Positions 3,740 to 37,631 of a DNA stretch of 64,000 nucleotides are shown piece by piece. The stretch covers positions 896,001 through 960,000 of the forward strand of contig JBJMOW010000005.1 of NCBI GenBank assembly GCA_045803545.1. Direction: 5' to 3'. The notes under the pieces are model-generated. The model searched no databases, had not been told where the DNA came from, and was given only the letters and a program-made list of their open reading frames with translations. Both the position numbers and the translations under genes were made by a program. Positions within the stretch are counted from its first letter, which is position 1. Every line of letters begins with the position of its first letter. This stretch comes from Gemmatimonadaceae bacterium. Lineage in GTDB: Bacteria; Gemmatimonadota; Gemmatimonadetes; Gemmatimonadales; Gemmatimonadaceae.

Positions 3740-4719
3740 GATGAGCGCACCTCGGAGTGGTCGCCGACCGTGATCTCGCCGCGCACTCCCTCCAGAACGG
3801 TATCGTCACCAACGAGCGAATTCTTGAGCACCGATTTCCTGATTTTCGCGTTAGAGCCGACGATCGAGTGGCTGATCTCGGAACCATCGAGAACCGTCCC
3901 CGCGCCAATCGACACATTCGGACCGACCCTGGACTTCTTCAGCGTGACGTTGTCCTCGATGTAAACCGGATCGATGATCGTCGAATCGCCGGCATCGCGC
4001 GGTCGACGCGCGTGACCACGCTTTAGCATCGCCTCATTCGTCTCGAGTAGCGTCTCGATCTTGCCCGCATCGTACCAGCCCTCGACGTCGATCACTTTGA
4101 TCTTGGCTCCCTTGTCGATCATGTACTGGAATGCGTCGGTCAGAAAATACTCGCCCTGGTTCTTCGGTTGCTTGAGCGTCCAGTCGATCCCCTCGAACAG
4201 GAGCTTCCAGTTGCGGATGTAGTACAGTCCGATGTTGGCGCGCTTGGAGATCGGGGTCTTCGGCTTCTCGACGATTTTCGTCATGTTGCCGTCCTTGTCC
4301 GTGACGACGACGCCAAAGCGCTGGTAGTCTTCGACCTCTTTGACCCAGATGATTCCGTCAGCGTCGACGGTCTTCACCTTCGACAGGTCGGCGTCGAAGA
4401 TCGTGTCGACGAAGACGATCAGCACAGGCTGATCGGCGTACTCCTGCGCAAGGGCGATCGCGCCGGCTGTTCCATCCTGCACCTTCTGCTCGATGAATAC
4501 CGACGGAATGTCGGTCTCCGTTCTCGCGTACTCTTCGACTTTTTCCTTGAGGTGACCGGTGATGTAAATGATTTGCTCGACGTTGCCGAGTCGCTTGAGC
4601 TCGTCGAGGACGTATGACATCACCGGCTTGCCAGCGACCTTTAGCATCGGCTTCGGAGTGATGTGCGTATGCGGCCGCAGGCGCGTTCCCTTGCCGGCCA
4701 GCGGAATGATGACTTTCAT
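3736..4719 (-). CDS. Sugar-1-phosphate nucleotidyltransferase (glucose-1-phosphate thymidylyltransferase, long form)
   Basis: IIPLAGKGTRLRPHTHITPKPML, VEKP, WYDAG motifs; C-terminal left-handed beta-helix repeats. Confidence 0.9.
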   Translation of the reverse strand: MKVIIPLAGKGTRLRPHTHITPKPMLKVAGKPVMSYVLDELKRLGNVEQIIYITGHLKEKVEEYARTETDIPSVFIEQKVQDGTAGAIALAQEYADQPVLIVFVDTIFDADLSKVKTVDADGIIWVKEVEDYQRFGVVVTDKDGNMTKIVEKPKTPISKRANIGLYYIRNWKLLFEGIDWTLKQPKNQGEYFLTDAFQYMIDKGAKIKVIDVEGWYDAGKIETLLETNEAMLKRGHARRPRDAGDSTIIDPVYIEDNVTLKKSRVGPNVSIGAGTVLDGSEISHSIVGSNAKIRKSVLKNSLVGDDTVLEGVRGEITVGDHSEVRSS

Positions 4720-21955: not shown

Positions 21956-23302
21956 CTACCCAGCCAGACAGGCCTGGCCGGTTCCGTCGGAGACGGTATT
22001 CGCCGGATCGTTCGGATTGCGCGACCCGTTGAATCCCTGTCCTGCGGGCGGAATGTTGGTGTTCGTGAAGCGCTCGTTCGGATCGTAGTACATGCGACCG
22101 GGCATCTTCTGTCCCGCCTGAGTCGGCGCGAAGTTCGGAGTGCACGTGCGCTTGTAATCGTTCCACGCTTCGTGACCGAGCTGGAAATCGGCGATGTACT
22201 TCTCGGTCAGGATCTCATTGAGCAGCGCCTGTCCAGCGACTGCTTCGGGAGCCAGTCCGTGGTTGTCGCGCTCTTCGTTCAGCTTCGCCAATGCCGTCAC
22301 CTGATCGCCGGTCCGATAAGCCGCCTCGGCCCAGATCAGAGTGTTTTCATCGTACGAGACGAAGGTCTGCGGATAATTCGGAGCCAGCCTCGTTCCACTC
22401 AGGTTCGTCGCCGCGCCGTTGAAATAATCCTGGCGCCGCGGGTCACTACGCGTACTGAGCAGACTCACGAACTGCGGGTCCGGGATCAGATAACCACCGC
22501 GCCCGATCGTCAATTGGAACTGGTAGTAGAAGTTCGTCTCATTGGTGTTGCTGGTGAACGCGCCGAAGTAGTTCCCCGCGTCGGAGCTGATTCCCTGCTC
22601 CGCCTCGGCGAGCGCCGCCGCGTACGCCGCCTGTCCACGAACCTCCGCCGTGTGCATGTAGAATCTCGCCTTGAGCGTGTGCGCGAGCGCAGTCCACGCG
22701 TCGGTATCGCCGCCATAGACCAGGTCTGAAGCCACCGGCGGCGAATTCGTCTCCGCGGTGCTGGCCATATTGGCGATCGCTGCCGACAACACTTTCTGCA
22801 CCGAATCGTAAACCGTCAGCTGATTATCAAGCGGCGGGTTTAGTTCGTTGGTCAGCGCGTGCGAGTAGACGATGTCACCGAACAGGTCAGCGCCGGTTCC
22901 CATCGTGAGCCCTTCCTGTACCTGCAGGATGCCGAGCATCGCAAAGTTGTTCGCCTCCTTCGCGAGATTCTGCGCGCGCACGATGTCAACGAGACCACCG
23001 GCAGCGTAGAGACCGATGTTGAACCCGCTCTGAATGCCTTCGTCGTAGAGGTAGTTGTAGATGCTTTGGTACTGGTTCTGACCGCCGGCGAACTGACGCG
23101 CCCACATGCCCGTTACGCGCGCCGGATCGCTGCCGAGCAGCGCCCAAATGGCCCCCTCTGCGCCGGCGAACAACTGATTAGCCGTCGCAACTTGCGGCCG
23201 ATTCGGATCGTTGCTCAGATCCCCGCCCGTCAGATAATCACCTTTGCAGCTCGTCGCCGTCAGCCCGACGACAACGAGCGCGAGATATCGAAGTTTTATC
23301 AC
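21956..23302 (-). CDS. SusD/RagB-family outer membrane lipoprotein
   Basis: Lipobox ATSC, DPNRP, DLFGDIVYS, AHTLKARFYMH, EAWNDYKRT; downstream of SusC. Confidence 0.9.
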   Translation of the reverse strand: MIKLRYLALVVVGLTATSCKGDYLTGGDLSNDPNRPQVATANQLFAGAEGAIWALLGSDPARVTGMWARQFAGGQNQYQSIYNYLYDEGIQSGFNIGLYAAGGLVDIVRAQNLAKEANNFAMLGILQVQEGLTMGTGADLFGDIVYSHALTNELNPPLDNQLTVYDSVQKVLSAAIANMASTAETNSPPVASDLVYGGDTDAWTALAHTLKARFYMHTAEVRGQAAYAAALAEAEQGISSDAGNYFGAFTSNTNETNFYYQFQLTIGRGGYLIPDPQFVSLLSTRSDPRRQDYFNGAATNLSGTRLAPNYPQTFVSYDENTLIWAEAAYRTGDQVTALAKLNEERDNHGLAPEAVAGQALLNEILTEKYIADFQLGHEAWNDYKRTCTPNFAPTQAGQKMPGRMYYDPNERFTNTNIPPAGQGFNGSRNPNDPANTVSDGTGQACLAG

Positions 23303-23318: not shown

Positions 23319-26300
23319 TTATCGGTTTAGGCTGAACGACAACACGAACGACCGCGACTGCGGATTGGCGAACCAATCGAGTCCCTGAGTGAGGTACTCT
23401 GCACCCGCGTTGTTCACTTCCGGATCGAGCCCGCGATACTGCGTCCAGGTCTTCAGGTTGCGACCCGAGATGCGGATGTCCGCCGAGCTGAATCCAGTCA
23501 GGTTCTTCAGGAACGGCCGATCGAGCGTGAAGCTCAGACTCAGCTCACGCAGCTTGACCCAGCCGGCGTCTTCCATGAATTGCTCGCCAGGACCCGTGAA
23601 TCCGCCGCCAGTGCCGACGATGCTGAGCCAGTTCTCCCAGTCCTCTGGCGTATTGAGGCCGACGACTCCAGTGCCGGGACCCGCGACGTCCGGATACGCC
23701 TTCGTATCCCAACTGACGCCGTACTGGCCGGTGCCGCCGCGCGCATCGGTGTCCTTGTGAGTACCAAAGACGTAGAGAGCGCCGCGAGTACCGTTGTATT
23801 GAGTGCCGCCCTTTTTGACATCGAGCAAGCCGGACAACGTGAACTTGTTCAGAATCTTGAGCGATGACGAGTAGGACATGGTGTACTTCGGATGCGGATC
23901 ACCGATGACCCTGATCGCTGGATCAGCGACCGGTAGGCCGTCCGGACCGAGGAACAGCGCGTTTCTCTTATATCCGCCGGGTGTTGCGCCGCAGAGAGCA
24001 TCGATGTCCTGATCCGCTGCGCCCATGCCCGGCACCGCGATGTGGGTTCCCGACCCGCAGTGCACGAAACCGGTGCCGATGATGACGCCCGGTGCGTAAC
24101 CAATCACGTCAGCGCCTTCAGCTTCGTTCGCGCCGAATCCTTCCAGCAGATCGAAGATCTCAGCGCCGCCAAGATCAGTGACCTTGCCGCGGTTGCGGCC
24201 GAACTGCACGCCGAATTCCCACGCGAGATTCTGCGAGGTGTAGGGGCGGGCGTTGAACGAAACCTCGATTCCCTTGTTCGACAGCGCGGCGGTATTCTCG
24301 AACGCGCTGAGGAACCCGGTCGCGGCCGCGTTCACCGTGATCGGAAGAATCACGTCGGACGATTTCTTGTTATAGCCGACGACCGACAGATCGACCTTCT
24401 GATCGAAGAAGCCGAGATCCGCGCCGACCTCGAACTCTTTCTGCAGCTCGGGACGCAGCGCTGGATTGCCGATCCTGGTGCTGCTGGTGACGCCCGGCAC
24501 GCCGCCGACCGTGGTGCGCAAAACGTCGCCGTAACTCGACCCAAACTGCACGACCGTGCTCAATGCATTGAGCGCTGCGTACACGTCCGGCTCGCGCCCC
24601 GTTTCGCCATACGCTGCGCGCAACTTGCCGAAACTGAACAAGCCGGTCGGCTCAGATCCGTGGAACAGATTGCTGAACGTCCAGGCCGCCGACGCTTTCT
24701 TGAAAGTGTGACGACGCTGTGAAGCTCCGAACGTCGAGAATCCGTCGTTCCGCAAGCCGGCGGTCAGGTAAATCTGGTTGTAAAGATTGAACTCACCTTG
24801 CCCGAAGTAGCTCTCGATGTGACGGAGCGACTTGTTCTCGATGGCCGCCTGCGAGATGGTGTTCTCGAGCGCAAGCGGAGTAGGCGCGATCAAGCCTTCA
24901 CCAACCGTCGTGTGTTGCCGATAGCGACGTGAGTTCAGGTTTTGACCGACCGTGAAGGTCGTGTTGAAGTTCTCGCCGCGATCGAAGGTCGCCGAGGCAA
25001 GCAGGTTGTGATCGATGATCAGGTTGTTCTGATCGTTGCGAATGACGTTACCAGCGCCGTCGTTCGCCGAGGTTTGCGGCAGCGCCTGGAGCCGTGAGTC
25101 GGTGTAGTAGTCGCCACCGATCGTCTCCTTTACGTTCAGCCACGTCAGTGGATGCCAGTCGACGTTGAAGTTGGAGATGGCGCGCCCGACTTCATCGCGA
25201 TTGCCGTTGCTCGAAGCCACGAAGAACGGATTGTCGTAATACGCGCAGCACCCGAATGACTCGACTGTCGTCGCATTCGGGAATCGATAGCTGCGCTGCT
25301 GGCCGTACTGATTGAGGTACGGCTCGTTGTTGAACGCGGGCGGCGTTCTGAGCGCGCCAAGCAGCAATCCGGAAACGTCGTTGCCGCGCTGCACGAAATT
25401 GCCACGCGCATCGACGTAATTGAAGTTGCCACCAAGCGTAAGCTTGCTGCTGACTTCCTGAGTGCCCTTGAGGCGGAAGCTGGCGCGATTGTACTTGTTG
25501 TTCGGCCCCTGGATGATGCCGTCCTGATTGGTGAGACCGACGGACGAGTAGAACGTCGTGCGATCGTTGCCGCCAGAAAGCTGAATGTTGTTATCCGCAG
25601 TGAGACCTGTTTTGAACAGCTCACTCAAGTGATCGTAGGTCTGCGTGCCCGCGGGCAGTTTCGCGCCCCACGATGTACGACCGGCCGTAGGTGCGCAGTC
25701 AGGCGTGTCACCGCAGGTCGCCATCGCATCGGGAATCGGTCGCGGATCCCCGTTTGCGTTTGTGCGCGCCAGCGAGCCCTGTGCGTAATCGTGCTGCAGG
25801 AAGTCGACGAGACGAGGTTTGTCCCACGACAGCGTCGAGCCAACGCTGATACGGGTTGGTCCGCTGCGACCACGCTTGGTCGTAATCAGTATGACACCGT
25901 TCGCGGCGCGCGCACCGTAGATCGCTGCTGCCGCCGAACCCTTGAGGATCTCGATGCTCTCGATGTCGGACGGATTGACGTCAGCCGCGCGATTGGTTGT
26001 TACCGTGCCACCCTGCCTGTCGGTGACTGAGCCGCTGCCGACACCAATCGCCATCGTTGCCGGCGACACGGTCTGGTTGTCGATCGGCTGGCCATCAACG
26101 ACGAACAACGGCTGGTTGGTACCGGTCAGTGACGCTTCGCCGCGGATGACGACCGATGCAGCTGCACCGGGCTCACCCGACTGAGTGCGCACGTTCACGT
26201 TCGGCGCTTTGGCGGCGAGCGCAGCAATCACGTTTTGCGGCTCGTTGGACCGACGCAGCGCGGAGCTGTCGACGCGATTGATCGTCACGCCCAGTCGCTC

Positions 26301-26687
26301 GCGTGTTGTCGTGGTTCCGGCGCCGGTCACCACGACTTCGCCGAGGTGGAACGGATTCACCGGCAGGGTGAAGTTCTGGTTGTTCGTTGCTCCGGGCGTG
26401 AGCGCAATCTGAACCGAGCGCGCGGTGTAGCCGATGACGCGCGCGGTCAATGTCGCGGTGCCGCCTGTCGCTCTGCTCGACGGAACGATGAAGGTGTAAC
26501 TGCCATCATCGCTGGTCGTGGCGCCGATGTTGGTACCGGCGAGGAATACGCTCGCGGCACCGAGTGGCGCACCCACATCGCTCGTGACACGGCCGGTCAC
26601 GGTCGTTCCGCTTTGCGCGAACGCCGCCGATGCCGTGAATGCGAGTGTGGTGACGAATGACAAGAATTGTCTTCGCATACAACTCAC
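23319..26687 (-). CDS. SusC/RagA-family TonB-dependent receptor
   Basis: QPLFVVDG, DIESIEILKGSAAAAIYGARAANGVILITTKRG, VKLRELSLSF, GLDPE. Confidence 0.95.
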   Translation of the reverse strand: MSCMRRQFLSFVTTLAFTASAAFAQSGTTVTGRVTSDVGAPLGAASVFLAGTNIGATTSDDGSYTFIVPSSRATGGTATLTARVIGYTARSVQIALTPGATNNQNFTLPVNPFHLGEVVVTGAGTTTTRERLGVTINRVDSSALRRSNEPQNVIAALAAKAPNVNVRTQSGEPGAAASVVIRGEASLTGTNQPLFVVDGQPIDNQTVSPATMAIGVGSGSVTDRQGGTVTTNRAADVNPSDIESIEILKGSAAAAIYGARAANGVILITTKRGRSGPTRISVGSTLSWDKPRLVDFLQHDYAQGSLARTNANGDPRPIPDAMATCGDTPDCAPTAGRTSWGAKLPAGTQTYDHLSELFKTGLTADNNIQLSGGNDRTTFYSSVGLTNQDGIIQGPNNKYNRASFRLKGTQEVSSKLTLGGNFNYVDARGNFVQRGNDVSGLLLGALRTPPAFNNEPYLNQYGQQRSYRFPNATTVESFGCCAYYDNPFFVASSNGNRDEVGRAISNFNVDWHPLTWLNVKETIGGDYYTDSRLQALPQTSANDGAGNVIRNDQNNLIIDHNLLASATFDRGENFNTTFTVGQNLNSRRYRQHTTVGEGLIAPTPLALENTISQAAIENKSLRHIESYFGQGEFNLYNQIYLTAGLRNDGFSTFGASQRRHTFKKASAAWTFSNLFHGSEPTGLFSFGKLRAAYGETGREPDVYAALNALSTVVQFGSSYGDVLRTTVGGVPGVTSSTRIGNPALRPELQKEFEVGADLGFFDQKVDLSVVGYNKKSSDVILPITVNAAATGFLSAFENTAALSNKGIEVSFNARPYTSQNLAWEFGVQFGRNRGKVTDLGGAEIFDLLEGFGANEAEGADVIGYAPGVIIGTGFVHCGSGTHIAVPGMGAADQDIDALCGATPGGYKRNALFLGPDGLPVADPAIRVIGDPHPKYTMSYSSSLKILNKFTLSGLLDVKKGGTQYNGTRGALYVFGTHKDTDARGGTGQYGVSWDTKAYPDVAGPGTGVVGLNTPEDWENWLSIVGTGGGFTGPGEQFMEDAGWVKLRELSLSFTLDRPFLKNLTGFSSADIRISGRNLKTWTQYRGLDPEVNNAGAEYLTQGLDWFANPQSRSFVLSFSLNR

Positions 26688-26867
26688 TCCTTGAGTGTGA
26701 TGTTCGGAATGTGAGAGTGAGCGCAGGCGTGTAAAAGACTTTTTGCAGTTCCGAACTGGTTAAGGAGCTGTGCGCGATTTTTTACAAATCGCATACATGG
26801 CGGGCGCGTAGTAACGCAGGCGACCCCGCGTAACGCATCATATCTTCTCACGTACACCCGTCATTAC

Positions 26868-28613
26868 ATGTCACTGATCCGTCGTATGCGAGCATACGGA
26901 GCCCGCCCGCTGCTGCTCGGCGGGGCGCTTCTGGGAATCGTCGTGGTTGCGGGACTCGCGGCACTGGAGTCACACCGCACCTTCGTCGCGCGCAAAGCGT
27001 CCGCCGAACAGACGGTGCGCGATTACGCGAAGTTCGCGGCGTACCTCTATTCGACCCGGATCTATCTGTTCGCGCGCGAACGAACCTTCATGCCGTACGC
27101 GAAGTTCAACGCCGACGACCCGTACACGCGTGCCTCCCTGCCGCCGCTTTCTGCGATCCCCGCGAATACAGATTCGACGGAGAAGTGCGGACCAAACTGG
27201 ACCACTTATCGATTCCGCCTTGATCTACCGTCGGGCACGGTTCAATACCTGGGCGTTCGACCTCTGCCCGCAGTGGACCGGGCCATTCGCGACACGATCC
27301 CAAAGCTCGCCAACTCGCCCTGGGTCAAGCTCTCCGGATTCGGATACCTCTTCGTCGACCCACCGGGTGCGCCGAGAGAAGCGATTTCATACCTGCGAAC
27401 ACTCGACTCCGCTAAGAACGTCATAGCGGTTTACGGCTACCGGTCCTGCTACGGTGTGCGCGACACCATTGACTACGCGACCGTGCACAGGATCGTAAAG
27501 GTTTTGCCGCCAATGATCCCGGGGTATGGGGACTCTGCGTCGGATGCCCCCTCGGCGTGGTGCAAATGCGGCCCGAAAAAATCGGGAACCAGGAACGCCT
27601 CGGCCATGGAGCGGATGGCTGGCCCCTGGCCAAACGGCATGCCGGCGGATTCGCTACTGTATTTGAAGATCACTGACTTTCACGACCGCACCTTGTACCA
27701 GGTGCCTGCGCGCGGGAAATCTTCAGACTTGTACGGTGTCTCGCCCATCGGATACATCGGGGGCGTCTGGGTATGGGTCTCGTTGCGACCGGACGTCGCA
27801 AGGTTCCTCGTCGCCGGCGGCATCCCCGAGTCCCACGTCCCTGCGTCACTGGTGCTGTTCGGGGGCGCCATTGTGCTCGCAATCGCCGGGTTCGCTTCGC
27901 TGCGCAGTGAGGTCCGCCTCGTGCGGTCGCGAGAGCGGTTCCTGGCCAACGTCTCTCACGAGCTGAGGACCCCGCTCCAGCAGATCCTGCTCTTCGTCCA
28001 GCTGGTGCGGCTTGGCCGAACAAGGAGCGAAAGCGAGAAGGAGAAATCCCTCGAAATCATCGAGCGGGAGACGAATCGGCTGATTGCGTTGTCTAATTCC
28101 GTATTGACGGCCACCTCGACACCGGAGATGCAGCAACTGGAGTCGAGCGCGGTCGACGTCGCGGGCGTAGCACAAACGGCGGCGGATTTCTTCACACCTC
28201 TCGCGGAAGCTCGCAAGATGCGGATTGAACTGGACGTGGAGCAGCCGGCGGTTGCGCGCGGCGATCCGGGCGCGATCCGGCAGATCCTGATCAACGTGCT
28301 CGACAACGCCGCGAAGTACGGTCCGACGGGCCAGACGATCAAAATCGGTGTTCGCAAGAACGGGCCGATTGTCCGCTTATGGGTCGACGATCACGGCCCC
28401 GGGATCCCGCTCGCCGAGCGTAACAATGTCTGGCAACCCTTCGTAAGGCTGGGAGGGACAGTGGACGACAGCACCGGGGGGGCCGGACTCGGCCTCGCGA
28501 TTGTGCGCGACCTGGCTGCGGCGATGGATGCCCGTGCTGAGCTATCCGACGTCCCCGGGGGAGGCACCCGCTTCTCGCTGGATCTACACGCGAACCAGAA
28601 TGGGGCTCACTGA
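26868..28613 (+). CDS. Membrane sensor histidine kinase
   Basis: Two TMs, H-box VSHELRTPL, N-box NVLDNAAKY, DHGPGI, GAGLGLAIV. Confidence 0.92.
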   Translation: MSLIRRMRAYGARPLLLGGALLGIVVVAGLAALESHRTFVARKASAEQTVRDYAKFAAYLYSTRIYLFARERTFMPYAKFNADDPYTRASLPPLSAIPANTDSTEKCGPNWTTYRFRLDLPSGTVQYLGVRPLPAVDRAIRDTIPKLANSPWVKLSGFGYLFVDPPGAPREAISYLRTLDSAKNVIAVYGYRSCYGVRDTIDYATVHRIVKVLPPMIPGYGDSASDAPSAWCKCGPKKSGTRNASAMERMAGPWPNGMPADSLLYLKITDFHDRTLYQVPARGKSSDLYGVSPIGYIGGVWVWVSLRPDVARFLVAGGIPESHVPASLVLFGGAIVLAIAGFASLRSEVRLVRSRERFLANVSHELRTPLQQILLFVQLVRLGRTRSESEKEKSLEIIERETNRLIALSNSVLTATSTPEMQQLESSAVDVAGVAQTAADFFTPLAEARKMRIELDVEQPAVARGDPGAIRQILINVLDNAAKYGPTGQTIKIGVRKNGPIVRLWVDDHGPGIPLAERNNVWQPFVRLGGTVDDSTGGAGLGLAIVRDLAAAMDARAELSDVPGGGTRFSLDLHANQNGAH

Positions 28614-29362
28614 TGACACAACCGACTTCCTCCTGGCAGCCGTCACACAACGGAGACGCGGCGCCCAGCCGCAACATTCTGATCGTCGAAGACAACGAGA
28701 CGCTGGCGTTTGGTCTGCGCACCAGCCTCGAGGTTGAAGGCTACGAGGTTGAATGCGTGAGCGATGGCAACGTCGGCCTGGAGTGGCTGACCGATCACAC
28801 GCCGGATCTGATCGTCCTCGACCTGATGCTGCCCGGTCTCAACGGCTTCGAGGTGCTCCGTCGCTATCGCTCCAACGGCGGCAATGCCGCCGTGCTCATT
28901 CTCTCTGCGCGTGATCAGGAAGTCGACAAGGTGCAGGGATTCCGGATTGGCGCCGACGACTACGTGGTCAAGCCGGTCGGCGTGCTCGAGTTCCTGGCGC
29001 GCGTGGAAGCGTTGATGCGCCGGGTGAGCACGCCCGCGCGTGGGGGAGATGCGGGCCGAGGTGCGCTGCATCGCTTCTCCGACGTCGTCGTCGATTTACG
29101 CACGCGCACGGTCACGCGTAGCGGAAAGCAGGTCGATCTGAGCCCGATGGAGTTCGATTTTCTGGCGTACCTGATCGAGTCTGGTGGCGACATCGTTTCG
29201 CGCGACACGCTGATGCAGCGCGTCTGGCGCTACACCACCGGCGTCACTTCACGCACGGTCGATCAACACGTTGCTCGGCTGCGCAACAAGCTCGAGCCGG
29301 ATCCTGCGCAGCCTCGCCATCTCATTACTGTGCGCAAGGCTGGCTATCGCTTTCAGCTGTAA
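28613..29362 (+). CDS. OmpR/PhoB-family response regulator
   Basis: LIVEDN, LDLMLPG, GADDYVVKP, SRTVDQHVARLRNKLE, TVRKAGYRF. Confidence 0.95.
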   Translation: MTQPTSSWQPSHNGDAAPSRNILIVEDNETLAFGLRTSLEVEGYEVECVSDGNVGLEWLTDHTPDLIVLDLMLPGLNGFEVLRRYRSNGGNAAVLILSARDQEVDKVQGFRIGADDYVVKPVGVLEFLARVEALMRRVSTPARGGDAGRGALHRFSDVVVDLRTRTVTRSGKQVDLSPMEFDFLAYLIESGGDIVSRDTLMQRVWRYTTGVTSRTVDQHVARLRNKLEPDPAQPRHLITVRKAGYRFQL

Positions 29363-29386: not shown

Positions 29387-29938
29387 TCACGCCCGCCGGT
29401 GATAATAGAAGTCGTACTCGGTCCTCCACGTTTTTCCGCCGTCACTAGATAACTCCGAGTGCTGGCGAACGGTGTCCTTGTCGACCGGCGTGAAGGTCAG
29501 TCTGATTGTCGTCTGCGTTGAACCGGCCGGCTTCCAGAAAAAGACCAGGCTCTCACCGTCGCTCTGACTCTCACGGTACTCGTGGACATCTCCGTCGGAG
29601 CCAATCCAGAATTGCTGCCATTGCTTAAGACGGGGACTGTAGGAATTGAGACTCTTTCCAGTTCCACCCTTGGCGCCGGTCCAATTCTCCAGCACCGCGC
29701 ACCCGTTACTGGTGCTTTCGATGACACTGTCGCCGACATGGGTGCCGTCTTCGGTTTTGACATCCCACGCGCCGATCCAGAAGTCAAAGCGATGACGTTC
29801 AGGATCGTCCGCGCACGAATAGGGTGCGGCGGTCGAGTTAACCGCCTGACTGGCCGAGCTGGAGCTCGCCTGCGCAAAGGTTCCTTGGCCACCGAGCAGC
29901 GCAAACGCCGCGAATGTGAGTCTGATCGTTAATCTCAT
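29387..29938 (-). CDS. Secreted hypothetical protein (DUF1579-like beta fold)
   Basis: Signal peptide; FDFWIGAWDV ... SSDGGKTW; AGGAG upstream of ATG 29938. Confidence 0.75.
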   Translation of the reverse strand: MRLTIRLTFAAFALLGGQGTFAQASSSSASQAVNSTAAPYSCADDPERHRFDFWIGAWDVKTEDGTHVGDSVIESTSNGCAVLENWTGAKGGTGKSLNSYSPRLKQWQQFWIGSDGDVHEYRESQSDGESLVFFWKPAGSTQTTIRLTFTPVDKDTVRQHSELSSDGGKTWRTEYDFYYHRRA

Positions 29939-29970: not shown

Positions 29971-30047
29971 TCCGCCGAGCAAAGCGAAGAAACGCTCGGG
30001 TTGATTGGGGTACTCTTAGACATCGGCACATCGCTTTGCTCGGCGGA
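29971..30047 (-). ncRNA. Candidate guide RNA: perfect 17-bp stem enclosing a 36-nt TIGR-like unit
   Basis: TCCGCCGAGCAAAGCGA (29971-29987) pairs with TCGCTTTGCTCGGCGGA (30031-30047); the 43-nt loop on the minus strand holds TGCCG-atgtctaag-AGTACCCCA-atcaacccg-AGCG; starts 22 nt after the stop of the Nop/IS110-like gene. Confidence 0.5.
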
Positions 30048-30069
30048 TATCCGAATTAGTGCAGGGTGG

Positions 30070-30945
30070 TTAGGCGGTAATCCTCGGGTGATACGGGCGC
30101 ACGATCGGCAGGTTCAAAGACTTTCGCCACGCAATCCATAGGTTGCGGAGGAAAGCCTTCTCCATTTTTCGGAGCGCGGCGAGATGACTGCGCTTGGCGG
30201 TCCAGCCCTCCCTTTCGGTCGCCAGCCTCTCACGCTCGGCGTCGTAGTAGGTTCGGTAATCGCTTCCGCAGCGCAGCATCGAGACGCCAATCAGATAGCA
30301 TGACTTCCGAGCATGCGCATCGTAGCTGTTGCGACCACCGACTACGCTGCGGCGGGGCGCCACGCGCGTCGTATCGTCGTTAATCAGCTGCAGATGGCCG
30401 CTGCACAGACGCGAGCCGGCGCGGGTGAAGTGCGTGTCACCCAGCTTGTAGCCCGCCGGCATTCCGACCTCGAGCTTGCAGCGCGGGCACTGATAAGCGT
30501 TGCCGGGGATGGTCGCGAGGCCACAGTACGCCCAGAACGCGGACGGCGTTTTTGCGCGAGTGACATCGAGCCGGGATAGAAGTCGCGCGGCAAGCAGCTC
30601 GCCGACTCCACGTTGCTCCGACATCCATTGCCACGCCGGATGAGAGTCGATCGATGAGCGCAGCGCCACTGCGGCATCGTTCTCGTCTTCGCTCGCGCGC
30701 CAATACGCTTTCTCCAGAACTCGTGGTGCGCCGGCAGTTTCTCCGCGCGCGATGACCTTCAGCAGCGAGTCAGCATCACCCGCGATGCTGCCAACTCCAT
30801 CGAACGAGCGACCCTGAAAGAGCGCCCGCAGACGCTCGCCATGGGCGATGCGCGAGCGCTGCGCATCCTCGTAGAGCTGATATAGCAATCGGAGGTCGTG
30901 CGCGGCCTCGTTCGAGTCGGACAAGCGCTGAAGTGATGTCGCCAT
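30070..30945 (-). CDS. Nop/IS110-Tnp-domain protein lacking the DEDD/RuvC domain (TasA-like), with a zinc-ribbon-like insert
   Basis: Coiled coil LRLLYQLYEDAQRSRIAHGERLRA, HhH-like HPAWQWMSEQRGVGELLAARLL, SAFWAYCGL, YRTYYDAERERL, ALRKMEKAFLRNLW; no N-terminal GxD-type nuclease domain; CPRC-x15-H-x8-C-x2-H insert. Confidence 0.75.
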   Translation of the reverse strand: MATSLQRLSDSNEAAHDLRLLYQLYEDAQRSRIAHGERLRALFQGRSFDGVGSIAGDADSLLKVIARGETAGAPRVLEKAYWRASEDENDAAVALRSSIDSHPAWQWMSEQRGVGELLAARLLSRLDVTRAKTPSAFWAYCGLATIPGNAYQCPRCKLEVGMPAGYKLGDTHFTRAGSRLCSGHLQLINDDTTRVAPRRSVVGGRNSYDAHARKSCYLIGVSMLRCGSDYRTYYDAERERLATEREGWTAKRSHLAALRKMEKAFLRNLWIAWRKSLNLPIVRPYHPRITA

Positions 30946-31031
30946 GCTGATGATTTGGTGTTGGTCCAGGCAACGCTACAGCGCGGCACGCACTCACAGT
31001 GTTTACGTCCAGTAAAGTTTTGGCAGCGGTG

Positions 31032-33786: not shown

Positions 33787-36700
33787 CTACGGCTGGGCGG
33801 GACGAGGCTTATCTGCGAAAGTGATCGGATGGCCGAACGACCACTGACTGTGCTCACGGTCCTTCTTTGTCGTTGCGATCATACTCTTGACCATCGGCAT
33901 CAGCTCGAGCTGCGCCGGAGTGAGTATCAGCGCAACCGTGTCTGGCTGCACCCAGAACACTTTCCAATACAGCTTGTCGGTGGCTTTCGCGGTGTCCAGC
34001 TCCGCCTTCCCCGCCGCGCCGGCACCCCGCGCCAGATAATCGCCAAGCGGGCGAAATAGCGCGCGCACCTGCACGGAGAAAGCTGAATCCGCTCGACTCA
34101 GCGCAGTCACCTGCGTTCGCGTCAGGAACAGCGAGTCGGTCTGCTCGAGAATGAGTTTGTAGACGTCCGATGTGTTCGACAGGTAGAACGCCGACAGTGA
34201 ATCAGCGGAGCGACGTTGCCAACCAAGCGAGCTCTTCACGGGCTCAACGGCGCGCCGCAATTGCTGGAGATCGAAATCGGTCGACAGCGACAGACGGAAG
34301 TCGATAACGATGCGGAACGGGGTCCGTAACAGGCTGTGCCCGGGCCGGGTATCAGCAAAGCGCGGATTGACATCGTAATTGAAGCGGCCGTTTGCCACGT
34401 CGAAGCTTCGCGGCGTGAGCAGAACCGGATTTGGCGATGCGGGTGAGCCCCACCCGCGCAAGTTGTCACCGTGGAAGGCCTGATCCAGACCGGCGAGCAC
34501 GTTCTGGAAATAGACCGAAGGCGTCACGCGGTTTCGCCACTTTCCGGGAATGGGCGGAGTCCACTGGATGTTGAGCGATTGGGTCCACGGGCCGCGACAG
34601 CTATTCCGCGGCACCACTCTCCCGAGATTCTCCCGAACACAATCGCGCGCCGACGACGAACCGCTGTTTAGCAGTGCGCGCAACTGATTGCCCAGCTCAG
34701 TATCGGATGTGGAGGCCGGATCCGGAATGAATGCGCGATCTCCGCTGCGGCCGTCTCCATTCACATCGCCCTGGACAATCGGCGTAAACGGCAATCCTGA
34801 CTGAGCACGGCCGAAGAGTGTGACGGTGCCAGTCTTGTCGGTCGAAAACGCCGTCGTCAAAACGAAGATGTGACGCGCATCGCTCGAGCTCGGCGCCCAT
34901 TCGCGCAATCGCGGATCGCCGAAGGCCGCGCCATCAAATCCGCGATACTGACGCTTGCTCGACTGCAGCGTATAAGCGAGTGAGCCGAAGAATGAGGCGC
35001 CGCCACGGAATTTGAATACGTCGGGAGCTATCGCGAGGTTCAGCTGCCCACCGTAACCACGCAGATCGCTTACGCGCACGCCAACGCTTCCGTATTGGTT
35101 TGATCGGCGTGATTCAACCGGCGAGACTGCTCCGCTGTTGGCGTCGATCGACGATGCTGATACGAACACCGGGCGGCCGGCCTCATCCGCCAGGCTCATG
35201 CGCGGAACGCCGTTGAAGTTCGCGTCGAACAAACCGGGCTGCGACAGGTCATATGACGCGAGCGTACCGACTCGATACAGAACTCCGTGCATGCTTGTGT
35301 TCCAGTCGAGCGACGCGCGCCAGCTGCGGGGCACGTCGTACGACGGATCGATCAGCGTTGCGGCGGGAGTCAGATCCGAGAGGGTGCCGTTGCCGCTTAC
35401 ACACTGCGACGGAATCGCTGACATATCCGCCGCGAACTGCGCCCAGTCAGGCTGCGGCACCGCGGCGCCGACGCAGTTCAGGAATGTGCTCCCATTGTTC
35501 AACCCGGTTGCCGCTGACGCATCGGCGAGAATGCCGGGCCGCAACAGATCGCGGAATTCGCCGATACCGCCGCGCAATGTGCCGGACATGTATCTGTAGT
35601 AACGGCCAGTCTGGTTCTGCATGGTGCCCTGGCCGTTATCCTTGTCGCGATTGTAGGTGAACGTGAACCCAACGCGCGGACTCACGTGAACGCGTGACGG
35701 CGCGGCGCCGGTGCGCACGCCGAGCGCTTGCTCGAGTGCGGTGTTTCGCGGTGGTGCAGTCCCGAAGCCATCGGCTTCGACGCGGGCACCGTATTGAACG
35801 TTGAAATAGCGAGTCGCGCCGAAGGTGTGTGCGAGCGCAGTCGCAGCGTTCCACACCGTACCTTCACGAGGCGGCGCCGTAAGCGTACGCGAAAACGTGC
35901 TCGCGTTTCCGGCGATAAAGTCGTCGATCGAGTTGAAGGTGTAATTGCCCAACGCGTTTCCAAAACCCTCCTCGCGCAGGCCATCAACGCGGCCCCATAG
36001 CAATCCGCGGAAACGATGGGTTCGACCGTGCGCATTCCACGCAGTGAGATTTCCAGCCTCGAGCGTCCAGCGGTTTTCTGTGGTTGGCAACGAGCCGCCG
36101 CCAAGAGTGAGGGATGTGACGTCGGTTCCATCGCCAAGGTTGTCGGATCGCACGAGCACGGTTGCGCCGGGCAACGTCTGATATGGCGAGGTCGTCGTTC
36201 TCACGCCGCTCAGCGCGAGACGAGTCTCGTTGAGAGTCCGATGTCCCGCGCCCATATACGCCCCAAAGGTCAGTTGTGCACCGAGGTTCCGCTCCCGTAT
36301 CTCGCTGGCAGTCGATGGCGCCGCGAGAGGGCCGAATCCCACCGCGCCGTCGCGAGTAAATCCGGCGTAGGTTGTGAGCGCGCGGGTCTGCAGAGAGTCA
36401 CGCGTGTCGTCGAAACGTCCGAGCCATGTGATCGCATCATGCACCCGACTACGCGGTACGTTGCTCCCGCCCACAGGAAGGCCGAGCGGTGTCGCGAATG
36501 CCAGCAGTCTCGACACGGAATCCGGCTCCACGCCGGCATTGAGCAATGCCTGGTCATCCGCGTTCAATAGCGTCGACGGATCGCTCAGCGATTTTGCGAC
36601 GTCGACAGCCACGTTGTATGTCATCGCCTGCCGTATCAGCTCACCGTTGGCGCCAAAGCTGCCTCTCGCTCCCCCACTCGGCGCGCCAAGCGCACGGCCA

Positions 36701-37488
36701 GTAGCGTCAGTGAACTGAAGTATTCTTGGGTCGAAGGTGAGGTAACCGTCGCGTCGTTGATAGAGCCGATCGCCGGGACCCAGTTGCACATCCACGTTAG
36801 TTCCCGAGAATCCGCCTCGAGTTACATCGTAAGTCGCACCGGTTACACGTGTCTCCGTGTGGGCGGCGCGCGGAATCACGCTCGCCGACATGCCGGTCCC
36901 GTTCAGCGTGTTCAGATTTGATTCAGATCCCGAGCCCAGGATGCTAGGACCTGTGCCGGTGACGGTGACGTTCGACATCGTGCCGGCAACGGCGTTGAGA
37001 TCTCCAGCGGTCGTCGGCGGGACCTGGCCGCTCACGCCGTTCTGCCATGACTCGGAGGAGCCAGGCTCCGGCTGTTGCGGGTGAATATCGATGTCGGCTC
37101 GCACCGGTTTGCGCCCTTCGATACGAACCGCGTCGAGACTGACAACGGGCGCGGGGTGCAGTACAAAATTCGCGACCAGCTCACGCTCGTCGGCTTGTCT
37201 TTGAACTCTCCGGCGAGCGGAGATGGATCCCGTCGCCGCTACGTAAACGAGATAGTCGCCGGTACCCTTGTCAAAGCGAACGCGATAATTGCCCGAGCTG
37301 TCGGTGCTAGTCTGCTGGATTGCGCGGTCGGGGCCGCGCGTGATCACGACAGTTGCGACGATTGCGCGCGAGGAATCGTCTGTGACGCGGCCGCGAAGTA
37401 CGTCGGCCGAATCCTGGCTCCGTGCTGCGCTTGAGAACGCGGAAAGAAAAAGGACGCCCGGTATCAGCGTTCTAACGAATCGCGGCAT
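33787..37488 (-). CDS. Carboxypeptidase-regulatory-domain TonB-dependent-receptor-like (Oar-type) outer membrane protein
   Basis: Signal peptide, LRGRVTDDSS..STDSSGNY, YDVTRGGFSG, VSPRVGF, SGLPFTP..GDVNGDG; start placed at ATG 37488. Confidence 0.8.
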   Translation of the reverse strand: MPRFVRTLIPGVLFLSAFSSAARSQDSADVLRGRVTDDSSRAIVATVVITRGPDRAIQQTSTDSSGNYRVRFDKGTGDYLVYVAATGSISARRRVQRQADERELVANFVLHPAPVVSLDAVRIEGRKPVRADIDIHPQQPEPGSSESWQNGVSGQVPPTTAGDLNAVAGTMSNVTVTGTGPSILGSGSESNLNTLNGTGMSASVIPRAAHTETRVTGATYDVTRGGFSGTNVDVQLGPGDRLYQRRDGYLTFDPRILQFTDATGRALGAPSGGARGSFGANGELIRQAMTYNVAVDVAKSLSDPSTLLNADDQALLNAGVEPDSVSRLLAFATPLGLPVGGSNVPRSRVHDAITWLGRFDDTRDSLQTRALTTYAGFTRDGAVGFGPLAAPSTASEIRERNLGAQLTFGAYMGAGHRTLNETRLALSGVRTTTSPYQTLPGATVLVRSDNLGDGTDVTSLTLGGGSLPTTENRWTLEAGNLTAWNAHGRTHRFRGLLWGRVDGLREEGFGNALGNYTFNSIDDFIAGNASTFSRTLTAPPREGTVWNAATALAHTFGATRYFNVQYGARVEADGFGTAPPRNTALEQALGVRTGAAPSRVHVSPRVGFTFTYNRDKDNGQGTMQNQTGRYYRYMSGTLRGGIGEFRDLLRPGILADASAATGLNNGSTFLNCVGAAVPQPDWAQFAADMSAIPSQCVSGNGTLSDLTPAATLIDPSYDVPRSWRASLDWNTSMHGVLYRVGTLASYDLSQPGLFDANFNGVPRMSLADEAGRPVFVSASSIDANSGAVSPVESRRSNQYGSVGVRVSDLRGYGGQLNLAIAPDVFKFRGGASFFGSLAYTLQSSKRQYRGFDGAAFGDPRLREWAPSSSDARHIFVLTTAFSTDKTGTVTLFGRAQSGLPFTPIVQGDVNGDGRSGDRAFIPDPASTSDTELGNQLRALLNSGSSSARDCVRENLGRVVPRNSCRGPWTQSLNIQWTPPIPGKWRNRVTPSVYFQNVLAGLDQAFHGDNLRGWGSPASPNPVLLTPRSFDVANGRFNYDVNPRFADTRPGHSLLRTPFRIVIDFRLSLSTDFDLQQLRRAVEPVKSSLGWQRRSADSLSAFYLSNTSDVYKLILEQTDSLFLTRTQVTALSRADSAFSVQVRALFRPLGDYLARGAGAAGKAELDTAKATDKLYWKVFWVQPDTVALILTPAQLELMPMVKSMIATTKKDREHSQWSFGHPITFADKPRPAQP

Positions 37489-37631
37489 CACCCAGTCCCG
37501 TACGGGTCGGAAATCGAATTGTTTCGCGCGAACGTAGTCGCGCGCACTCACAATTTGACGGGATTTCCGGGAAAAGGGTTGACTACTGATCCCGGTGAAG
37601 GGTCAGGCCATCCCCTGGGTATCGCCGAGGG

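Follow-up and report, generated by a model that had tools for sequence, protein, structure and literature searches.

A nuclease-free TIGR-TasA protein with a near-fixed predicted guide in Gemmatimonadaceae: a candidate RNA-guided repressor of susC genes

The window analysed here, a 64,000-nt stretch of DNA from a Gemmatimonadaceae bacterium, holds a minus-strand gene that is followed by a large hairpin. A preliminary description had taken the hairpin for a TIGR-Tas dual-spacer stem-loop unit and had seen no target for it within the window. The locus raises the question of whether the hairpin is a guide and, if so, what a protein that has no nuclease domain would be directed to by it. In the parts of the TIGR-Tas literature available to us, the natural targets and the role of nuclease-free TasA are open questions, and short, variable spacers give many false matches; for most stem-loop TasA spacers, natural targets are described there as undetermined (PMC12045711, 10.64898/2026.09.09.750476, 10.64898/2026.08.11.744272).

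The TasA protein, its predicted guide and its neighbours

The single predicted stem-loop tigRNA occupies 29971..30047 of the minus strand and begins 23 nt past the stop codon of the 291-aa gene. Its stem, described as 17 bp long, is a perfect inverted repeat (arms 30047-30031 and 29987-29971), and the 43-nt loop encloses the 36-nt unit, which had been placed at 30028-29993 of the minus strand with every letter correct. The unit (29993..30028) reads as half edge, box C, spacer A, box D, 4-nt loop, box C, spacer B, box D and half edge, a register that corresponds to the 36-nt period of a phage array described below (contig L133). The boundaries proposed for spacer A (30023-30015) and spacer B (30005-29997) were borne out. 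The 18-nt periodicity that had been claimed holds as the register of the CC and AG boxes, but the two halves are identical at just 7 of 18 positions, which is weak evidence when taken alone. The predicted fold has an energy of -35 kcal/mol (z -6.44), and none of 200 shuffled sequences folded as well. As had been remarked, the loop is too large for a terminator; it has 43 nt where a Rho-independent terminator has a 3-8-nt loop with a U tail, and the hairpin was not called as one. It matched no Rfam family at E<=1. The possibility of a generic genome-wide repeat, which the preliminary description had set against a guide, found no support, given that the unit is present once in the 3.7-Mb genome (G000) and is confined to genomes with the gene. 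A low-depth contig from an RNA library (metatranscriptome) covers 29972-30157 with two differences in the loop and may be DNA; most of the 64-kb stretch is uncovered by such contigs.

The gene, tasA (30070..30945, minus strand), encodes a 291-aa Nop-domain TIGR-associated protein. It scored 239.7 bits against the NCBIfam TIGR-Tas model NF052498 (cut-off 100), and the sole PDB sequence matches of a profile of 45 homologues were TaTasR (9MTY, E 1.4e-17) and SpTasH. A fold search with the predicted model (mean pLDDT 73.7) ranked TasR (9MTY) first, with Z 14.9 and an rmsd of 3.6 over 180 aligned residues, followed by TasH, the IS110 recombinases (Z 10.3-10.8) and, at Z about 7, Nop5 and Nop56/58. 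Because the coiled coil, or first helix, of the model starts at residue 13 of 291, there is no room for a nuclease domain at the N terminus, and no nuclease family, RuvC or HNH, matched the protein, which therefore falls into the TasA class. Judged from sequence and predicted fold, the protein is a nuclease-free TIGR-TasA. It carries an insertion whose residues C153, C156, H172 and C181 are invariant across 45 alignment rows and which is predicted to form a zinc ribbon. Close homologues are labelled Gemmatimonadaceae or Gemmatimonadota by the source databases. The protein also matched Pfam PF02371 weakly over a C-terminal stretch and carries the PHROG label 'transposase'. We rejected the identification as an IS110 transposase, since the DEDD/RuvC domain is absent, the PF02371 match is limited to the C-terminal stretch, and the gene is single-copy in fixed synteny.

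In the carriers examined, and within the reach of their contigs, tasA is followed in constant order by the unit, an optional small gene, the response regulator, the kinase, susC and susD. The small gene, found downstream of the guide in part of the carriers (29387..29923, minus strand), encodes a protein of no known family with a signal-peptide-like start and without a significant Pfam, NCBIfam or PHROG match. The response regulator, of the OmpR/PhoB type (28613-29362), and the histidine kinase (26868-28613) are fixed neighbours on the plus strand, and the kinase has an orthologue in 31 of 109 genomes of the genus, including all 26 that carry tasA. Beyond them on the minus strand lie a gene for a TonB-linked outer-membrane importer, susC (23319..26687), assigned by TIGR04056 (510 bits), the TIGR04057 signature and synteny, and its partner susD (21956..23302; PF12771 and PF12741). 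When six neighbour proteins were scanned against the PHROGs, the Kelch-repeat protein was the only one to give a match, and we therefore read the locus as chromosomal. In some carriers, a minus-strand gene for a 1254-aa protein with a carboxypeptidase-regulatory-like N terminus and no NCBIfam match (33787-37551) lies upstream of tasA; it is probably another outer-membrane receptor.

Upstream of tasA, an element with a short inverted repeat and a -10-like hexamer (30973..31016, minus strand) is conserved across carriers. Its conservation suggests a probable promoter with a regulator site, which a sigma-70 consensus scan did not find, and it is kept before the next gene in genome G364 although tasA is missing there. 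A second half-site often lies about 35 nt further up, and the element is a candidate site for the adjacent response regulator. Conserved blocks that include short direct repeats also lie between the kinase and susC starts (26688-26867 and the matching regions of other carriers); such repeats are typical of OmpR-family sites. The element upstream of tasA resembles the complement of spacer A as well. Autoregulation of tasA was nevertheless rejected, because a seed-facing base of the element varies with no corresponding change on the spacer side and because no spacer-B match lies beside it.

A near-fixed predicted guide and its relatives

Loci were gathered through the TasA protein and then scanned for the unit with a pattern that was blind to the spacers. 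A unit was found behind tasA in 99 of 100 loci with at least 55% protein identity and a complete 3' flank, always one per locus in the scanned region; the 99 loci are partly redundant and comprise 62 distinct unit-plus-stem sequences. Within the genus, a spacer-based pattern for the unit matched exactly the 26 of 109 genomes that have tasA, with 27 unit copies for 27 tasA copies. The genomes G311-G315, marked unpublished, are non-carriers that enter the genus tallies only, with two of their loci among the 30 translated core loci described below. In a sample of 401 genomes of the phylum, an alignment search in which six candidates were scored per genome found TasA in at least five, all of the bacterium's own family.

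When the 46 distinct units whose spacer A is 9 nt long are compared, the boxes and positions A1-A6 and B1-B9 are conserved in 44-46 of them, and variation is seen at A7 and A8, in the loop and at the third base of the first box C. Both halves of all 46 have the CC and AG boxes; the AG observed in place of UG at box D in the preliminary description recurs in each of these units. Position 9 is a purine in both spacers of all 46 units, and position 6 of spacer A (30015..30023, minus strand) is U in 45. Spacer B (29997..30005, minus strand) is identical in 87 of the 99 loci; ten variants carry C-to-T changes and two are altered at position 1, and most of the variants are either wobble-compatible or track the Ile/Val/Leu alternatives of a SusC motif introduced below. 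Across homologues, 8 of 13 consensus stem pairs show compensatory changes (24 of the 99 loci, hand-picked). According to the available part of Faure et al. (PMC12045711), divergent boxes are allowed if both halves agree, which holds for the AG/CC units.

The homologous loci and the family match of the gene thus support the claim of a TIGR-Tas dual-spacer stem-loop unit, and the 36-nt unit is a predicted TIGR guide. The variable spacers expected for TIGR-Tas were not found, the spacers being near-fixed across related loci. It had been proposed that boxes no more conserved than the 9-mers would argue against a guide; taken literally, this is what the alignment gave, and we judge it to point to a fixed target and not to a sequence that is no guide. 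The earlier guide interpretation as a whole is partly supported.

Several loci depart from the common arrangement. In L083, a 68% identical tasA has no unit behind it, possibly through guide loss. Two tasA-unit copies with different spacer-A variants occur in one genome (G321:C298 and G321:C308), which has 3% contamination and may be a strain mix. In L039, L048, L094, L102 and L103 the distance from the aligned protein end to the start of the unit is only 18-24 nt, and the first two of these have a stem that overlaps the tasA reading frame at its end.

The closest array-bearing relative that we found is on a viral contig from IMG/VR (L133), where a Tas protein 38% identical to TasA and with the same Cys/His insertion is accompanied by a dual-repeat array downstream of position 3882 (L133/L222). 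This array shares with the chromosomal system the AG/CC boxes, the 36-nt frame and a purine as the ninth spacer base (42 of 44 parsed spacers), and differs from it in having at least 22 units, variable spacers, no enclosing stem and a viral setting. Because position 9 is a conserved purine in the phage array as in the chromosomal units, we read the spacers as 8 nt long, which falls within the 8-12 nt that characterise TIGR-TasA spacers. In a tree, the phage protein and nine chromosomal family-level homologues form one clade (support 99/95), within which the branching is unresolved and no root gives a direction. From these features, the chromosomal system likely descends from a phage dual-repeat array that was reduced to one unit and closed by a stem. 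The unit itself was found in none of the viral contigs searched, and the search of viral contigs for relatives of the L133 protein returned only that protein. The spacers of the L133 array gave scattered one-mismatch and GC-rich matches in G000. Tas proteins of 24-32% identity are followed by repeat arrays with a similar edge repeat in L017 (G273, from 2121), L049 (G309), L134 and L135; two of these arrays are in genomes of this family and possibly belong to prophages.

More distant chromosomal homologues are less uniform. No unit was seen near ten family-level loci of 34-46% identity. Homologues of this identity range in L006-L009 and L012-L016 have the Cys/His insertion and no visible guide nearby, so that a guide may come from elsewhere; two of them (G274 and G009) are directly followed by a susC gene. 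A 40% homologue in G261 (L011) has a single hairpin unit roughly 90 nt beyond the tblastn match, with a spacer B that resembles that of G000 and a different spacer A; a single exact-core pattern for this guide gave no match in its own genome.

Candidate targets in susC genes

The target geometry was derived from the 8-nt 3' overhang and the C-5 rule in the available part of PMC12045711, and has one strand read spacer B and then spacer A in reverse complement. The opposite-strand geometry suggested for the two spacers was judged right. The contiguous 9+9 target was absent in four orientations with gaps of 0-2, the best match in the TIGR geometry having 3 mismatches. With full 8-nt spacers and gaps of -1 to 3, just two sites in G000 had 2 mismatches or fewer, both with a gap of 1 (8+1+8). 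One (C6:16145), with 15 of 16 positions matched, covers a -35 box (17-nt spacing) 198 nt before the start of a susC gene. The other (C2:1194058), with 14 of 16 matched, precedes another susC by about 130 nt and ends 3 nt upstream of a -35 box. Both genes are called susC by plug motif and tree position, not by HMM, and the promoters are consensus matches. Susceptibility of such a result to chance was gauged with 5853 shuffled guides, which gave a mean of 1.44 sites; 23 of them had one site and none had two in the susC upstream windows, which make up 0.22% of G000, odds that are to be discounted by the few dozen settings tried because the geometry was chosen after inspection of the data.

The guide core was followed further as a 13-nt pattern. 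It occurs 4 times in G000 against 0.087 expected, the sole peak over 4 orientations and 13 gaps, and 3.3e-5 of comparable word pairs reach 4 occurrences. Three of the four sites are in susC coding sequence and one is in a susC promoter. The core is one of 20 words out of 4^13 that are present in at least 3 of 15 susC-like genes, and it spells the codons of the SusC plug motif. At the coding sites, 13 of 16 positions are paired and the four central bases are unpaired. In the genus, a gapped core search found the core in 31 of 109 genomes against 2 for the controls, mostly at one spacing, and 13 of 30 translated core loci read as the plug motif I-N-P-x-D-I, the rest being unrelated proteins or non-coding. 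The accessible text of PMC12045711 reports that TasR cleavage tolerates gaps of 1-2 bp only, and that TasR nicked a natural site with full spacer B and 6/9 pairing in spacer A. Position A6 is mismatched at both promoter sites of G000 and at most coding sites, despite its near-constant U. The candidate targets lie outside the 64-kb window, in other susC genes of the host chromosome, and not in phages, plasmids or rRNA. Neither the 16S rRNA of G000 nor the 23S rRNA of the carriers G383 and G011 (that of G000 being unassembled) holds an exact sense-strand complement of either spacer core, and a box C/D snoRNA-like role in guiding rRNA was rejected on this ground.

Of 15 carriers in which the promoter was seen, 9 have a C2-type site, located 3-5 nt upstream of the -35 box, and none of 4 genomes that never carried tasA has one; orthology to C2 was assigned by eye from the motif peptide, and the carriers are kin. 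Five of the nine sites match at 15/16, one at 14 and three at 13, with a gap of 1 or 2 and one scored at gap 0. A degenerate site is present in G342, which lacks tasA. All six carriers that lack a C2-type promoter site retain the coding core in the same gene, and the promoter site is present in all four carriers whose coding core is disrupted at spacer-B position 1 or further. A stricter pattern for the C2 site was found in 4 of 109 genus genomes, all carriers. G335 retains the C6-type site with a single change between flanks that have diverged, and the non-carrier G381 lacks it.

The coding core is present in 80 of 109 genus genomes, in carriers and non-carriers alike, and is therefore not kept by the guide. 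By hand counts, Ile-Asn-Pro sites outside the neighbour gene had the core in 31 of 38 cases in 13 carriers versus 9 of 16 in 16 non-carriers. We dropped selection-driven retention of the coding core in carriers as support, because these counts are confounded by kinship, and for the same reason dropped an excess of A-ending middle codons in carriers. Scans with variant guides (gap 1, up to 2 mismatches) gave no site in G011 (98% complete), one unannotated site in G303, 15 rows against 0 for the control in a further scan, 2 of them known susC motif sites, and 21 rows against 4 for the control in another, of which 9, and among these 4 of the 5 rows with one mismatch, were known susC motif sites.

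The susC gene next to tasA lacks the full match. Its plug-motif codons (25963..25979, minus strand) are mismatched to spacer-B positions 1 and 6, and codon comparison and synteny suggest a putative escape allele. The Ile-Asn codon pair that spacer B spells was found in 0 of 20 parsed neighbour susC genes (two further genes were unparsed, and the contigs of four carriers were without the gene) versus 11 of 12 paralogues of the same subfamily elsewhere. The 12 paralogues were picked blind to their codons; eight from match lists that required the core were left out of this count and of the clade test. The context background of the Ile-Asn pair, 32/104, weakens the escape signal. The neighbour genes have nine other codon pairs instead, and rare Ile codons occur in many of these. 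The genes fall into four clades interleaved with paralogues, in the long tree as in a local tree, and their monophyly is rejected (p-AU 5e-9; 25 versus 14 rows). The kinase is present without tasA in five genomes (G364, G370, G342, G379 and G346). In the sisters G364 and G370, which represent one event, tasA is missing at the locus and the neighbour susC has the full core; in G342 and G379 the neighbour susC is still without it, and the locus of G346 ends at a contig edge.

A second guide was found in another genus. In G094, tasA, whose product is 43% identical, lies beside a susC and is accompanied by an imperfect hairpin with different spacers. A strict 15-nt pattern for this guide gave three sites in its own genome, none in four other genomes and none in the wrong geometry. 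One site is inside a susC gene and matches at 16/16 with one G-T pair and no gap. Another precedes a susC start by about 40 nt, this start being separated from the HMM-tested part by an assembly gap, and the last matches perfectly as 8+1+8 where an ORF ends, 104 nt away from the contig end. No site with 3 mismatches or fewer was found in the neighbour susC of G094.

Interpretation and relation to known systems

We, therefore, put forward as the probable reading, at roughly 0.6, that TasA and its near-fixed guide form an RNA-guided repressor of rival host susC genes that would favour the adjacent susCD operon. A TasA dimer would load the processed hairpin, and the two spacers would pair with opposite strands over 17 bp (8+1+8), giving a two-strand R-loop. 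Binding over or just upstream of a sigma-70 -35 box would block initiation by occluding RNA polymerase, and the weaker 13/16 coding sites in several paralogues could add road-blocks. The two-component system may time expression, and import would shift towards the adjacent susCD operon, which is without a full match. TasA proteins repress transcription in E. coli according to the available part of a bioRxiv report (10.64898/2026.09.09.750476). A more far-reaching version, to which we give even odds, is that a phage TIGR-Tas was domesticated into a host transcription factor whose frozen guide silences the SusC family through promoters and a coding motif, that the adjacent susC repeatedly gained silent escape codons, and that a second lineage may have done likewise with another guide.

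If the guide is real, its target might still lie elsewhere. One scenario is that another conserved target, such as a phage, a mobile element or a gene missing from the assemblies, fixes the guide, and that the susC matches are secondary or a relic of the origin of the spacers. The conserved A6, mostly unpaired at the susC sites, would be explained in this way, the G011 and G261 guides gave no good host site, and the G000 assembly is 93% complete. We regard this scenario as unlikely, however, since both of the top genome-wide sites are susC promoters, a non-coding site is conserved in 9 of 15 carriers, the independent G094 guide also matches susC, no viral contig has the unit, and the 16S and 23S rRNA are unmatched. 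Alternatively, the same protein, guide and susC targets might serve activation or remodelling. In all 9 carriers that have it, the C2-type site ends 3-5 nt before the -35 hexamer, at the position of a class I/II activator; the invariant, zinc-ribbon-like insertion could contact RNA polymerase; and RNA-guided activation of susCD has been published for dCas12f-sigmaE (PMC13472631, in the part available). On the other hand, the C6-type site covers the -35 box itself, the coding sites and the neighbour's avoidance of the match are in keeping with silencing, the phage relative already has the insertion, and no sigma factor is linked to the locus, so that we consider activation quite improbable.

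Repression by a guide would also be mistaken if the RNA were a structural ligand or a vestige, its spacers kept for protein contacts, and if AT-rich, promoter- or codon-like words simply clustered at susC. A -35-like hexamer and common codons are indeed among the matches, the coding core is frequent in non-carriers, and several 40% homologues persist without a visible unit. Yet shuffled guides of the same composition do not reproduce the matches, spacer-B variants are mostly wobble-compatible or follow the motif's Ile/Val/Leu alternatives, the spacers of phage relatives are fully variable in the same frame, and the neighbour susC avoids the match in four clades, all of which make a merely structural RNA very improbable in our view. 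As for a generic terminator, a palindromic repeat or an IS110-type end, the weak PF02371 match, the 'transposase' label and a strong stem downstream of a gene are what such a reading would predict. It is, however, contradicted by a conserved 43-nt loop within a variable stem, by single-copy occurrence with strict linkage to tasA at a fixed locus in 26 species, and by the lack of a RuvC/DEDD domain and of a terminator call. With the unit in 99 of 100 loci and only in tasA carriers, and with the NF052498 score, we rejected it as next to impossible.

Repression thus being the preferred reading, the system can be compared with those described elsewhere, as far as the available parts of the cited texts go. 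The nearest in kind is stem-loop TIGR-TasA (PlTasA, BlTasA and MbTasA; PMC12045711, 10.64898/2026.09.09.750476, 10.64898/2026.08.11.744272), with which it shares a Nop-only Tas with a coiled coil and no nuclease, two spacers bordered by boxes C and D within a hairpin and its enclosing stem, the 4-nt loop core, the opposite-strand geometry and a predicted repression without cutting. In contrast to these systems, the locus has one unit and not an array, its spacers are fixed across species, it is a stable chromosomal locus of a bacterium outside the CPR, its box D is AG with a preceding purine where the published stem-loop seeds (TIGRFinder) are TG/CG, and it has the Cys/His insertion and candidate natural host targets. 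Because the multi-unit array with variable spacers and the UG/CG box D are missing, we file it as a variant derived from TIGR-TasA. We found no literature on TIGR-Tas with TonB-dependent importers or on tigRNA in Gemmatimonads, and the word 'Gemmatimonad' is absent from the main texts of two TIGR papers and from supplements of Faure et al. (PMC12045711) in the parts consulted; bioRxiv supplements and TIGRSafari may list these loci. IS110 recombinases and box C/D snoRNPs share the Nop-type RNA-binding fold, whereas the present system has no RuvC/DEDD domain, a single fixed copy and no rRNA complementarity.

Two further systems resemble it in function. The available text on dCas12f-sigmaE (PMC13472631) describes RNA-guided control upstream of susCD operons; unlike the system proposed here, it activates through a linked sigma factor, has a Cas12f fold and belongs to Bacteroidetes. 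The closest functional analogue is TldR (fliCP-TldR and oppF-TldR; PMC10705468, 10.64898/2026.09.22.753285, as far as available), a domesticated RNA-guided repressor with a conserved guide, the promoters of paralogous surface or import genes as targets and a linked copy that escapes. The likeness is functional only and the two are not homologous: TldR has a TnpB/Cas12 fold, a single guide, a TAM and an omega-RNA, whereas the present system would use a Nop/Tas dimer, a split two-strand guide, no adjacent motif and TonB-linked susC targets, and membership in TldR is ruled out by the HMM and fold assignment of the protein to Tas. A guide that is fixed across about 100 loci removes the false-match problem of short, variable spacers, and the two named promoter sites and the coding sites come with the neighbour allele as a built-in negative control. 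If the proposal is true, then TIGR-Tas would have natural host targets, and the suggested 8+1+8 geometry and mismatch tolerance would be useful for compact programmable repressors. The system would then be a Nop-family counterpart of transporter tuning by TldR, and the domestication of RNA-guided proteins into host regulators would reach beyond the TnpB/Cas12 line into that of Nop/Tas, with convergence on paralogous genes for nutrient import.
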